Source of the DNA: an uncultured Bacteroidales bacterium
GTDB lineage: Bacteria; Bacteroidota; Bacteroidia; Bacteroidales; UBA932
DNA length: 64,000 bases
Direction: 5' to 3'
Assembly: GCA_944326265.1 (NCBI GenBank)
Contig: CALVDE010000005.1
Location: 28,729-92,728 of the forward strand
Position 1 is the stretch's first letter. Each line of letters starts with the position of its first letter. A program made the translations under genes and the position numbers. The notes below the pieces were generated by a model. The model ran no database searches. It saw only the letters and a program-made list of their open reading frames with translations, and was not told where the DNA came from. Below, in pieces: positions 49,254 to 52,207 of this stretch.

Positions 49254-49449
49254 CGCAGCCCTTCAGCAGTGACGTTTTGCGGCAAAGCATATACCCAGAA
49301 AAGGACCAGGCCCTCCCACTGCTTCGCGGCGGGCCCCTCCCTCTAGAGCCGAGGGCGGCTAGTCCTTTTCGGGGTATGTGCTTTACTACCAGGTGATTAT
49401 GATGTGGATGCGGTCGCATTGTGCATTTTCCCAAAATAATTTGCATATA

Positions 49450-49487
49450 TGTAAAATATACTTTACATTTGTACAAGTAAAATTTAC
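49450..49487 (+). promoter_or_regulatory. Promoter/operator: palindromes TGTAAA-N6-TTTACA and GTAAA-A-TTTAC around the -7 box TACATTTG
   Basis: The inverted repeats are at 49450-49467 and 49477-49487. The -7 box at 49464-49471 overlaps the first palindrome. The region lies ~30 nt upstream of the membrane-protein/XRE operon. Confidence 0.5.
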
Positions 49488-49502
49488 ATAAATAAAACAG
49501 AT

Positions 49503-49967
49503 ATGAAAACTAAACATTATCTTCTTTCCTACAAATGGCAGACGGCAGGATGGATACTCCTGGCTGTTGCCTTAATGGTGACTTGTCTAATTGTTGGTGT
49601 AGGACTTTACATGACGATGAGCGAGGCTGTTACGAAACTATTTGTCGCGGCTGTTTATGTCGTGACAGCTCTTTCACTACTGCTGATAGCATTTTCGGAG
49701 GAGAGGCAGGAGGACGAATTCATCAAGTCGCTGCGGGGAAGGTCGCTGGCTGCTGCGGCTTGCGTGGCATTTGTGCTGTCCATAATCTGGTTCTGTGTGA
49801 GCAATGTAGGCCGGATGTATTCCCCTTCGCAGATGGGTGACGATCTGTGGTGGAAGTTCAGCTTAGTGGATAATTATCTGTCGATCATCCCGATGTTCTT
49901 CCTTTACATCGTTATTTTCAAAGCGAGTCTGTGGGTCTATAGATGGAGGAGCCGCCATGAAGAATAA
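49503..49967 (+). CDS. Four-TM membrane protein, partner of the downstream XRE regulator
   Basis: Four hydrophobic helices and an 11-nt overlap with the HTH gene. Confidence 0.55.
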   Translation: MKTKHYLLSYKWQTAGWILLAVALMVTCLIVGVGLYMTMSEAVTKLFVAAVYVVTALSLLLIAFSEERQEDEFIKSLRGRSLAAAACVAFVLSIIWFCVSNVGRMYSPSQMGDDLWWKFSLVDNYLSIIPMFFLYIVIFKASLWVYRWRSRHEE

Positions 49968-50148
49968 CATCCGCGTCGAAAGGGCTGTCCTGCGCATATC
50001 GCAGCAGCAGTTGGCCGAGGCCGTCGGAGTCTCCCGCCAGACCATTTACGCCATCGAGAACGGAAAGTTCATTCCCTCCACCGAGCTGGCACTGAAACTT
50101 TCGGCTTACTTCGGGAAGACTGTCAATGAGCTTTTTCAGCTGGATTGA
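49957..50148 (+). CDS. XRE-family helix-turn-helix transcriptional regulator (63 aa)
   Basis: ISQQQLAEAVGVSRQTIYAIENGKFIPSTELALKLSAYF. Confidence 0.88.
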   Translation: MKNNIRVERAVLRISQQQLAEAVGVSRQTIYAIENGKFIPSTELALKLSAYFGKTVNELFQLD

Positions 50149-50170: not shown

Positions 50171-50178
50171 TAAATTTG
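50171..50178 (+). promoter_or_regulatory. -7 box TAAATTTG for the DUF3791/DUF3990 operon
   Basis: Exact TAnnTTTG match 19 nt before the ATG at 50197. Confidence 0.5.
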
Positions 50179-50196
50179 TAGCAAATCCCTTTAATT

Positions 50197-50421
50197 ATGA
50201 GCAGAGAGGAGAAGAATAGGATCGCATTTTATATAGCGTGTATAGGAGCTTTTGCAGAGAGGTTCTCCATAAGCAATGCTTTTGCATACAGCTATCTGTC
50301 TCAATATAAAGGGTTGGAACTGATATACGATTACTACGATATCGAGCATACGTTCTCTATAGATGATGCAGTAGAGGATATGCAGAAAATATGTCGGCGG
50401 AATGGAGGTCCGCTCGTATGA
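50197..50421 (+). CDS. DUF3791-like small protein (copy 1)
   Basis: 74 aa and helical. ERFSISNAFAYSYLSQYKGLELI is paralogous by eye to copy 2. There is an ATGA overlap with the next gene. Confidence 0.6.
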   Translation: MSREEKNRIAFYIACIGAFAERFSISNAFAYSYLSQYKGLELIYDYYDIEHTFSIDDAVEDMQKICRRNGGPLV

Positions 50422-50888
50422 TACTGTATCATGGCTCAAATATAGAGATTGGTGAAATTCTTCTGGCAAAAGGCAGGCATGGAAAAGACTTTGGCAGAGG
50501 ATTCTACCTGAGCGCGGACTATAGACAGGCAGTGCGGATGGCTGAGAATGTCGTGCGGAGAGAGGGTGCCGGTGTGCCGTGTGTGACCCGTTTTGAGTTT
50601 GATGAAAGCAGGACCTGCAATCTGGCAATTAAGCGTTTTGATGGCTACACAGAGGAGTGGGCAAGGTTTGTTCTGGACAATAGAAGGAATTATACAGATA
50701 GGCCGAGTCATCCTTATGATATCGTAATAGGCCCGATTGCCAATGATGCTGTCGGGGTTCAGATAAGGTTGTTGTCAAGAGGTTTTATAACGTTTGACAA
50801 GTTTATAGAGAACTTAAAATTCACAACGCCGACAGTTCAGTATTTTTTTGGAACGGAACAGGCTGTCAAATTATTGAAAAAATTATGA
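50418..50888 (+). CDS. DUF3990-like protein with ADP-ribosyltransferase-like motifs
   Basis: MILYHGS...GRGFYLS...YDIVIGPIAND. The family name is from recall, and the ART similarity is my inference from the motifs. Confidence 0.65.
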   Translation: MILYHGSNIEIGEILLAKGRHGKDFGRGFYLSADYRQAVRMAENVVRREGAGVPCVTRFEFDESRTCNLAIKRFDGYTEEWARFVLDNRRNYTDRPSHPYDIVIGPIANDAVGVQIRLLSRGFITFDKFIENLKFTTPTVQYFFGTEQAVKLLKKL

Positions 50889-51112
50889 CATCTGACGAAA
50901 GACAATTTCTGATAGAGACATTATGCGAGGATCTGGTCCCGATGATAATGGAAGAGTATAATCTTTCAGATAAGGAAGCTATTGATAAACTGTATAAATC
51001 CAATACCTTTTCTAAGATAGAGGACCCGGATACCGGTCTATATTATCAGAGTCCAGTATATGTCTTCGACTTTCTGAAAGATGAATTTAATGCAGCCGGG
51101 GTTGAGCATTAA
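50885..51112 (+). CDS. DUF3791-like small protein (copy 2)
   Basis: 75 aa with EEYNLSDKEAIDKLYKSNTFSKI and an ATGA overlap with the previous gene. Confidence 0.6.
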   Translation: MTSDERQFLIETLCEDLVPMIMEEYNLSDKEAIDKLYKSNTFSKIEDPDTGLYYQSPVYVFDFLKDEFNAAGVEH

Positions 51113-51134
51113 GCAGAGAGCGCGTCTGACGGCT

Positions 51135-51431
51135 ATGTACGCCAGAAATTTCCTGATGGTGTCGGGGATATGCAGTTTGTCTGCGTTCATTGCTCTGGCA
51201 GCGATGGACGCGGATAGGGCCGGACTCGCAGCGATGGCCGGGATGCTGTCGCTGATGAAGCTGTTCCTGACCGGGATACTGGTGCTGCTTAGAATGTTGG
51301 ACCGCGGCCGGGGCGACCGGGAGTTTTTCTATATCAATCTCGGGCTCTATCCGCACCGGATGACGGCTGCGGCAAGTGCTGAGTTTATGAAGCGGTGTTC
51401 TGTTCGGAGGGTCATAGGGGGAATTAATTAA
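51135..51431 (+). CDS. Hypothetical two-TM protein (doubtful; possibly a gene fragment)
   Basis: A GC-rich ORF between AT-rich cassettes. It has two hydrophobic stretches and no motif. Confidence 0.25.
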   Translation: MYARNFLMVSGICSLSAFIALAAMDADRAGLAAMAGMLSLMKLFLTGILVLLRMLDRGRGDREFFYINLGLYPHRMTAAASAEFMKRCSVRRVIGGIN

Positions 51432-51471
51432 ATGGAGAATGTGATGCCGGGTGTGGCTTGGAGGTTGGAGG

Positions 51472-51684
51472 CTAATGGCTGTCCGGGTGGTATTCGAGGA
51501 TGTCGCCGGGCTGGCAGTCGAGGGCGCGGCAGAGGGCCTCGAGGGTGGTGAAGCGGATGGCGCGGGCCTTGCCGGTCTTGAGTATCGAGAGATTGGCGGG
51601 GGTGATGCCGACTTTTGCGGCCAGCTCGCCGGAGGACATCTTGCGGCGGGCGAGCATCACATCTATGTTTACGATTATTGCCAT
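51472..51684 (-). CDS. YozG-like short HTH transcriptional regulator (70 aa)
   Basis: MAIIVNIDVMLARRKMSSGELAAKVGITPANLSILKTGKARAIRFTTLEALCRALDCQPGDILEY. Confidence 0.85.
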   Translation of the reverse strand: MAIIVNIDVMLARRKMSSGELAAKVGITPANLSILKTGKARAIRFTTLEALCRALDCQPGDILEYHPDSH

Positions 51685-51694
51685 GACTGTTCGT

Positions 51695-52207
51695 TTAGAT
51701 GGTGAGTCTGTTTTCTTCGCTGACTCTGACCGCAAGGCCGTAGATGAGGGAGAAGGCGAAGAGTATCAGCGGAGTCAGAAGCATAGCATCAGTGATGTTT
51801 TTGTATGTGTCGTAGATTAGAATACGGATATTCTCATTGCAGAAATTGTACAGTAGGTTGCATACTGCGGCGGATATCAGTATGTAAGTGTTTGATTTAA
51901 GGAAAAATGCTCCTGATTTGAGGACAAGAATGGATTTGATCATGAACAGGAGCAGCAGAGCGTCGAAAGCGATGCCGAAGAGCAGGCGTCCATAAAATAT
52001 AAAGTACTGCCAGCCGAGGACATTGTCGCGCCATACGATTTTGCTGCCGTTCTCAGCGGCGCCGTCTCCGTAGACAATATTCCTGTAGTCTGTAAACCAT
52101 CCGGCTACGCTTCCGCTTTGCACGATAAGCCATACGGCATTTACAATACAGATGATGCCGACTATTGCTGTTACGGCAATCAGTAGATTTTTAGTGGTTC
52201 TTTTCAT
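51695..52207 (-). CDS. DUF2975-like membrane protein, partner of the YozG-like regulator
   Basis: 170 aa with four or five TM helices. It lies 10 nt upstream of the HTH gene, which is the usual DUF2975 + YozG pairing. Confidence 0.65.
   Translation of the reverse strand: MKRTTKNLLIAVTAIVGIICIVNAVWLIVQSGSVAGWFTDYRNIVYGDGAAENGSKIVWRDNVLGWQYFIFYGRLLFGIAFDALLLLFMIKSILVLKSGAFFLKSNTYILISAAVCNLLYNFCNENIRILIYDTYKNITDAMLLTPLILFAFSLIYGLAVRVSEENRLTI

Follow-up and report, generated by a model that had tools for sequence, protein, structure and literature searches.

The cassette analysed here lies on the + strand of a 64,000-nt stretch of DNA (the window) from an uncultured Bacteroidales bacterium of the UBA932 lineage (contig CALVDE010000005.1 of assembly GCA_944326265.1), and comprises three short open reading frames (ORFs). 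The first (50197..50421) codes for a DUF3791 protein of 74 aa, the second (50418..50888) for a DUF3990 protein of 156 aa with an ADP-ribosyltransferase (ART) fold, and the third (50885..51112) for an acidic, helical protein of 75 aa that we call the C-type partner. ATGA stop/start overlaps at 50418-50421 and 50885-50888 join the three ORFs, and 19 nt before the first ATG there is a sequence of the Bacteroidota -7 promoter type, TAAATTTG (50171..50178, + strand). The first-pass annotation of this DNA had described three ATGA-overlapping genes behind this box, and the ORFs, the overlaps and the box are all where it placed them. The middle ORF can also be read from 50391; we take 50418 as the start of the gene because its relatives all begin M-[IKR]-L-Y-H-G. 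The motif TAnnTTTG occurs 43 times in the window against 21 expected from shuffled sequence, an approximately twofold enrichment. Of 20 Bacteroidota loci (the window counted), 15 have it 23-38 nt before their first gene and one more has it 50 nt before; TAAATTTG probably acts as the promoter box of the cassette. The stop codon of the preceding gene, coding for a 63-aa protein of the helix-turn-helix (HTH) family HTH_3, is separated from the cassette by 48 nt. The cassette had also been described as AT-rich, and indeed its G+C content (41%, versus 52% for the window) is the minimum among all 941-nt windows.

Pfam hidden Markov models assign the upstream protein to DUF3791 (PF12668; 71.7 bits, E 4.9e-20, cut-off 25 bits) and the middle protein to DUF3990 (PF13151; 150.3 bits, E 4.3e-44, gathering cut-off 32.2 bits), residues 1-154 of the latter aligning with profile positions 1-151 of 152. 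These two family names had been given correctly; the downstream protein, which had been given the DUF3791 name as well, scores 15.9 bits (E 0.013) where the cut-off is 25, so that Pfam's rule excludes it from DUF3791, and just one of its 26 orthologues shows even a sub-threshold match to that family. The PADLOC models of the candidate system PDC-M13 recognize all three proteins: PDC-M13A (PDLC04435) the upstream one (E 3.6e-28), PDC-M13B (PDLC04438) the middle one (E 4.7e-45) and PDC-M13C (PDLC04444) the downstream one (E 1.5e-20). The A, B and C component genes are small, adjacent, on the same strand and joined by 4-nt overlaps, and nothing that defines the type differs; the cassette is a member of PDC-M13 and not a new kind of system. 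A related two-gene candidate, PDC-M10, is listed beside it (Payne, Hughes, Fineran, Jackson, bioRxiv 10.1101/2024.01.29.577857). The PDC series holds 145 candidate systems, predicted from their embedding in BREX, DISARM or type I restriction-modification (R-M) operons (bioRxiv 10.1101/2024.01.29.577857). Since the cassette corresponds to PDC-M13 and Pfam's ART clan already includes DUF3990 (PMC7955679), the novelty implied by the first-pass annotation was overstated. No NCBIfam model matches any of the three proteins, and the PHROGs collection gave nothing beyond a weak match of unknown function.

Fold and putative catalytic residues of the middle protein

The middle protein was modelled with AlphaFold2 from an alignment of 40 sequences, namely the window protein and 39 relatives that are 42-77% identical to it. 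The model (mean predicted local distance difference test score, pLDDT, 94.8; predicted template-modelling score, pTM, 0.88) has six core strands, at residues 2-7, 29-32, 55-61, 71-73, 102-107 and 139-144. Its neighbours in a Foldseek search of the PDB are nearly all ART folds, with template-modelling (TM) scores of about 0.45-0.5 to solved structures, and include the Xre-RES toxin 9r35 (E 4e-4), ParT (6d0i), VPA0770 (8gug), exotoxin A, diphtheria toxin, PARP1 and tankyrases. Among viral models the matches are ART-PolyVal domains, the best of them a 202-aa phage protein (TM 0.79). The resemblance to ARTs that had been noticed by eye is therefore borne out by Pfam, by the model and by its structural neighbours. 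Compared by sequence with PDB chains, either singly or as a profile, the enzyme finds nothing meaningful, and only the fold search was informative.

The three motifs of the H-Y-[EDQ] clade of ARTs are H-x-[ST] in strand 1, a tyrosine in strand 2 and an acidic residue or glutamine at the front edge of strand 5 (PMC7955679). We counted conservation over 102 representatives of the family, each standing for one 50%-identity cluster. The first motif corresponds to H5-G6-S7 within strand 2-7 (H and G are each kept in 99 of 100 representatives), and the second to Y30 of F29-Y30-L31-S32, in strand 29-32, which is kept in 100 of 101. The third position, placed by secondary structure and invariance, would be taken by D101, immediately before strand 102-107 (strand 5) and kept in 101 of 102. 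Because these positions match the clade definition and are invariant, we read the triad of the middle protein as H5-Y30-D101 (H-Y-D), with D101 as its putative acidic member, and the protein would be an NAD+-using enzyme (NAD, nicotinamide adenine dinucleotide) of the H-Y-[EDQ] branch. The stretches MILYHGS, GRGFYLS and YDIVIGPIAND, which had been singled out by inspection, are all present, and the His, Tyr and acidic motifs chosen there turn out to be invariant throughout the family and to be positioned in strands 1, 2 and 5 or adjacent to them; the key tyrosine is Y30, not Y31 as had been proposed. D24-F25-G26, W81, R89, G105, A108 and Q141 are near-invariant too.

By sequence, the nearest family is ART-PolyVal (PF18760), which is also the nearest viral fold. 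Sub-threshold matches to it occur in 37 of the 40 relatives (best 3.6e-6), and weak PARP matches in three; the window protein itself stays below the ART-PolyVal cut-off of 31.2 bits (14.2 bits, E 0.077, over the N-terminal 43 residues only). By these scores ART-PolyVal is a family related to DUF3990 and not the identical one, and the two differ in setting, since the window protein stands alone with two partners whereas ART-PolyVal is a domain of giant multi-domain (polyvalent) proteins of phages and conjugative elements. Neither the window protein nor any of 40 relatives has a Pfam match to RES, and none of the three proteins has one to DarT (DUF4433) or the macrodomain. Isoelectric points (pI) of the enzyme range from 4.9 to 9.1 across relatives, so charge is uninformative. 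Geobacillus virus E3 gp30 (locus L053, 1971-2579), a 202-aa solo homologue of DUF3990 with 28% identity and no recognisable DUF3791 or C-type neighbour, is probably the best structural match in the BFVD database.

The conserved trio and its two small partners

We compared 38 related genome loci from Bacteroidales, Lachnospiraceae and other Bacillota, 37 of which include the upstream flank. A small ORF directly precedes the DUF3990 gene in all 37, with a 4-nt overlap in 29, and an intact small ORF overlaps the DUF3990 stop codon in 33 of the 38 (by 4 nt in 29 loci and by 8 nt in four). This arrangement far exceeds chance: the three parts belong together. They also occur in other combinations. 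DUF3990 is fused to the C-type partner, after a DUF3791 gene, in one of the loci (L033; 228 aa) and in 13 among the representatives listed. On plasmid pBF9343 and many related plasmids of Bacteroides, Phocaeicola and Parabacteroides, a 149-aa fusion of the C-type and DUF3791 proteins precedes DUF3990, and this two-gene form corresponds to the variant with fused partners. Finally, on Moraxella osloensis pNP7-2 the order is permuted to DUF3990, C-type, DUF3791. Since the parts occur permuted and fused, the three proteins probably form one complex; the permuted and fused forms would indicate which of them must touch, and the DUF3990 + C-type fusion offers a natural single-chain version for structural work. 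In two loci (L024 and L030) the enzyme gene is broken and the upstream partner intact, as is the downstream partner in L024.

The two small partners had been taken for paralogous copies of one protein. They are two distinct, separately conserved families: BLASTP finds no similarity between them, and hhalign with profiles of about 25 sequences each gives a probability of about 1%. What survives of the earlier claim is a hint of remote kinship. The two halves of the pBF9343 fusion aligned alone give an hhalign E of 0.37, and with pooled, more diverse profiles to which the fusion halves were added the alignment covers 74 columns with E 2.4e-4 and a probability of 43%, in the very register that had been seen by eye. 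In the AlphaFold2 model of the 149-aa fused partners (pLDDT 85.5) both halves share the same pattern of a long helix, a 9-10-residue helix, a 7-residue helix and a 15-18-residue helix. The pooled-profile alignment and this shared four-helix pattern make it plausible, but do not prove, that the two partners arose by an ancient duplication. Foldseek found no PDB match better than E 1.9 for the fused-partner model, so the partners receive no fold name, and neither a DNA-binding nor an ADP-ribose-hydrolase role is supported; a search for an HTH_XRE Pfam match on them was equally empty. The C-type family is acidic throughout, with a median pI of 4.5 (4.1 for the window's member).

In Mediterranea massiliensis (locus L018, 5474-7729) a C-type partner is in frame with a 680-aa protein resembling ResIII/DEAD-box helicases, 752 aa in total, which may be a real fusion or the result of a lost stop codon.

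Distribution and possible role of the module

The 2.36-Mb genome to which the window belongs carries four divergent complete cassettes, with 31-52% identity among their enzymes and 16-44% among their partners. Partners that diverge faster than their enzyme are the pattern expected of insulated paralogous toxin-antitoxin pairs. Within the genus, 17 of 24 genomes have matches, at one to four places each, several of them split or truncated; among the other families of the order that were sampled, 15 have nothing that reaches the family cut-off, and an additional one gave a single weak match below it (E 8.8e-4). The cassette is present in 86 plasmid records, including the pBF9343 family, whose plasmids are shared among human-gut Bacteroides. 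In pBF9343 the module adjoins a zeta-toxin module, and in a 7.7-kb mobilisable plasmid it is found among just 11 annotated features. In Moraxella hsdM and hsdS of a type I R-M system border it on either side, with 4-nt overlaps throughout. DUF3990 is rare in phages (11 of 50,697 records). The same domain forms the C-terminal toxin tip of type VI secretion system (T6SS) Rhs effectors in Serratia and Enterobacter, with a function that has not been defined (PMC4524185, PMC10763514, PMC12165300).

An overlapping operon, several copies per genome, patchy and plasmid-borne occurrence and broken enzymes beside intact partners are generic genomic hallmarks of type II toxin-antitoxin systems, and the family shows all of these. 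The toxin-antitoxin or defence role first suggested for the cassette fits this context, in which copies are multiple, patchy, carried on plasmids, inserted in a type I R-M operon and put to use as an Rhs toxin tip. Our preferred explanation, to which we give a probability of roughly 55%, is that the DUF3990 protein is an NAD-dependent toxin restrained by two small partners, the whole forming a toxin-antitoxin or abortive-infection module. The analysis establishes the gene structure, the fold, the invariant triad, the association of the three parts and their mobility, and from these we infer NAD+ use, toxicity, neutralisation by the partners and a trigger. The enzyme would be made together with, and kept inactive by, a complex of the DUF3791 protein and the acidic four-helix C-type protein, and tight translational coupling would hold the three proteins in proportion. 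Loss of the cassette, or a disturbance induced by a phage, would release the enzyme, which when free would be toxic by ADP-ribosylating an essential target (nucleic acid or protein), and growth would stop. By such a release mechanism the module would act as a toxin-antitoxin, addiction or abortive-infection unit. Toxicity is favoured because DUF3990 fills the C-terminal toxin slot of T6SS Rhs effectors.

Known systems offer partial parallels. Xre-RES, ParST and DarTG, from which the best structural matches to the window enzyme come, likewise pair an enzyme with the ART fold, some 150-160 aa long, with one or more small partners whose genes overlap tightly with its own in an operon, and are mobile, multi-copy and plasmid-borne. 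They differ from the PDC-M13 type in having one small partner and not two different ones, in lacking its permutable gene order and in that toxicity is, for the window's module, putative. Moreover, the window enzyme has an H-Y-D triad and not the R-E-S of Xre-RES and ParST, with no Xre or ParS partner, and its cassette is without the macrodomain protein DarG of DarTG. The Rhs tips, Serratia Rhs5 and Enterobacter RhsA (PMC4524185, PMC10763514), share with the window protein the same Pfam domain, the toxin position and a small downstream immunity gene, but the window protein has no Rhs, PAAR or trafficking part, and for this reason it would stay inside the cell that produces it.

Several observations weigh against a toxin restrained by its partners. 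The TM-scores to solved ARTs reach about 0.5 at most, and the role of D101 was assigned from secondary-structure position and invariance, D110 and Q141 being likewise near-invariant. In the partners no domain for binding DNA or removing ADP-ribose is recognisable, and their fold has no match in the PDB. Covalent fusion of the enzyme to one partner would be unusual for a labile antitoxin, and the DUF3990 + C-type fusion is just as compatible with a domain that regulates or serves as an adaptor. The window's neighbourhood consists of a hydrolase, a dehydrogenase and membrane + HTH pairs, with no defence island, and at the other loci 9 of 103 neighbour proteins match the PADLOC candidate PDC-S01 and three match PD-T4-6; no neighbour gene is conserved across loci, except for AAA-ATPase (PDC-S01-like) genes in a minority. 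The PDC systems are predicted candidates (bioRxiv 10.1101/2024.01.29.577857), and in the literature searched we found no experimental study of any member of the family.

The best-surviving alternative keeps the same module logic and has the enzyme kill by destroying NAD+, as an NADase or NAD+ phosphorylase, as do the RES and MbcT toxins. The two best PDB matches are indeed RES-domain toxins of Xre-RES systems, followed by relatives of ParT and VPA0770. However, the enzyme lacks the RES signature and has instead, as an invariant feature, the transferase-clade triad H-Y-D, and the sequence points elsewhere, to ART-PolyVal as the closest family and weakly to PARP, with no RES Pfam match. Destruction of NAD+ is unlikely in our view, and if the enzyme is a toxin, it would more probably be a transferase than an NADase.

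An ART-fold enzyme need not be a toxin. With the two small proteins as helper subunits, the middle protein might modify a small molecule or antibiotic, like Arr, or an RNA end, like Tpt1, and confer an accessory metabolic or resistance trait. Small-molecule ARTs also show the H-Y-D configuration, Arr-2 appears as a partial Foldseek match at rank 43, and the genes around the window's cassette are metabolic and regulatory. Such a trait would fit poorly with four divergent copies in one small genome and with partners that diverge faster than the enzyme, and both the role of the domain at the toxin tip of Rhs effectors and the embedding of the cassette in an R-M operon speak against it; there is also no Pfam match to the Arr or Tpt1 families. 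We consider a non-toxic enzyme quite unlikely.

Very improbable, lastly, is an offensive or anti-defence effector of mobile elements that, like the ART-PolyVal domains of polyvalent proteins from phages and conjugative elements, would modify a defence or housekeeping factor of the host as the element enters, and of which the chromosomal copies would be remnants: ART-PolyVal is the closest family by sequence and, among viral proteins, by fold, the cassette travels on conjugative pBF9343-type plasmids and Geobacillus virus E3 has a solo homologue, but those 11 phage records are few, the chromosomal cassettes are intact, with their own promoter and both partners always kept, and one site of the cassette is within an R-M operon of the host.

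One survey of rumen genomes, in which PDC-M13 ranks with the most frequent candidate systems, counted 3,324 of its loci (PMC13356809), and few uncharacterised candidates for a defence or toxin module are as abundant in Bacteroidales of the gut and rumen. The window's own instance is ordinary. If the preferred reading of the middle protein as an active ADP-ribosylating toxin is correct, its target, its control by two partners and any phage trigger would be new biology. What the present analysis adds to the description of the type are the four divergent cassettes in this one genome, the empty sites within the genus, the permuted and fused forms, the embedding in the Moraxella R-M operon, carriage on pBF9343-type plasmids and the flanking target duplications described below.

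The cassette as an insertion

The segment 50149..51089 (no strand assigned), that is, the cassette with its own promoter, is missing at the same site in two genomes of the same genus. In one of them (G010) just 20 nt separate the left flank (49418-50148, about 95% identity) from the right one (51090-51374, about 94% identity), and in the other (G016) the two flanks are 48 nt apart. The stretch 50196-51093 is the only one held in common with the cassettes of other genera. Judged from these comparisons, the window's cassette is a horizontally acquired, self-contained three-gene insertion of 0.94 kb. Since the empty-site genomes show the right flank beginning at 51090, the third gene ends in flank DNA, where its last seven codons and stop overlap the beginning of the conserved downstream ORF for a membrane protein (51090-51431). 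This copy lacks a clean target duplication and shows just an imperfect pair, CAGCTGGATTGA / CAGCCGGGGTTGA. The empty site of G010 (locus L046, ~1480-1501) has a tandem duplication of an 18-nt unit, TTATGCAGCCTGGATTGA, which covers the downstream gene's start and is a repeat of the HTH gene's end (TGGATTGA); the duplication may stem from slippage or be an excision scar.

Other copies carry clear duplications. The contig-15 copy of the window's genome (L041, genome G000) is bounded by a 71-nt direct repeat (1137-1207 and 2288-2358, 68 of 71 positions identical) that corresponds to the 3' end of a small gene (its final 23 codons), and the same site is empty, with a single copy of the repeat, in four genomes of the genus. 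The contig-13 copy (L040, same genome) has a perfect 16-nt repeat (1223-1238 and 2278-2293), and its site is empty with a single copy in G021. Because the empty sites hold a single copy, the repeats at both copies are true target duplications. In 9 of the 32 loci from genomes and 12 of the 61 from metagenomes (the latter at eight distinct sites), about one fifth of the 93, significant repeats of 16-118 nt flank the cassette, and several of these repeats contain terminator-like hairpins. No recombinase gene was found within the cassette. A fixed insertion length, a kind of molecular ruler, was suggested by values of 1053-1055 nt in four unrelated loci; over 61 more loci the length ranges from 1040 to 1106 nt, and we discarded the idea.

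These data allow a bolder proposal, which we regard as doubtful as a whole. It holds both that the module is a new three-component ART toxin system, with a heterodimeric neutraliser made of anciently duplicated four-helix proteins, and that it is a mobile unit of about 1 kb without a recombinase, leaving target duplications that vary and are unusually long, 16-118 nt. The unit would land at the 3΄ ends of genes or at terminators, the duplications having been checked against empty sites for two copies here. If true, recombinase-less spread of a cassette would be a mode new to the description of toxin-antitoxin or defence genes; the length of the target duplications suggests that small cassettes may insert by a route that has yet to be described.

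The contig-13 site looks like an insertion hotspot. Its flank adjoins a different, divergent DUF3990 cassette in three genomes (G017:C10, G011:C12 and G022:C95), and three others (G020, G003 and G015) have additional DNA of several kb there.

Around the window's own copy, two different modules of a membrane protein and a short HTH protein face each other across the cassette, at 49503-50148 (+ strand, HTH_3) and 51472-52207 (- strand, HTH_26), and in the empty-site genomes the + strand module directly precedes the third small membrane-protein gene (51090-51431). Immediately beside the cassette there is a second indel: in place of 97 nt of the window (51374-51471), three near-identical relatives (L001-L003, 5957-6749) have some 790 nt, which include an ABC-ATPase-like ORF of 245 aa. 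Further upstream, after the alcohol-dehydrogenase gene, the window carries at 49300-49368 a stretch of about 69 nt that recurs in many copies in genomes of the genus, with at least 12 copies in G024 at 82-98% identity, and that is a small intergenic repeat or an element resembling a miniature inverted-repeat transposable element.

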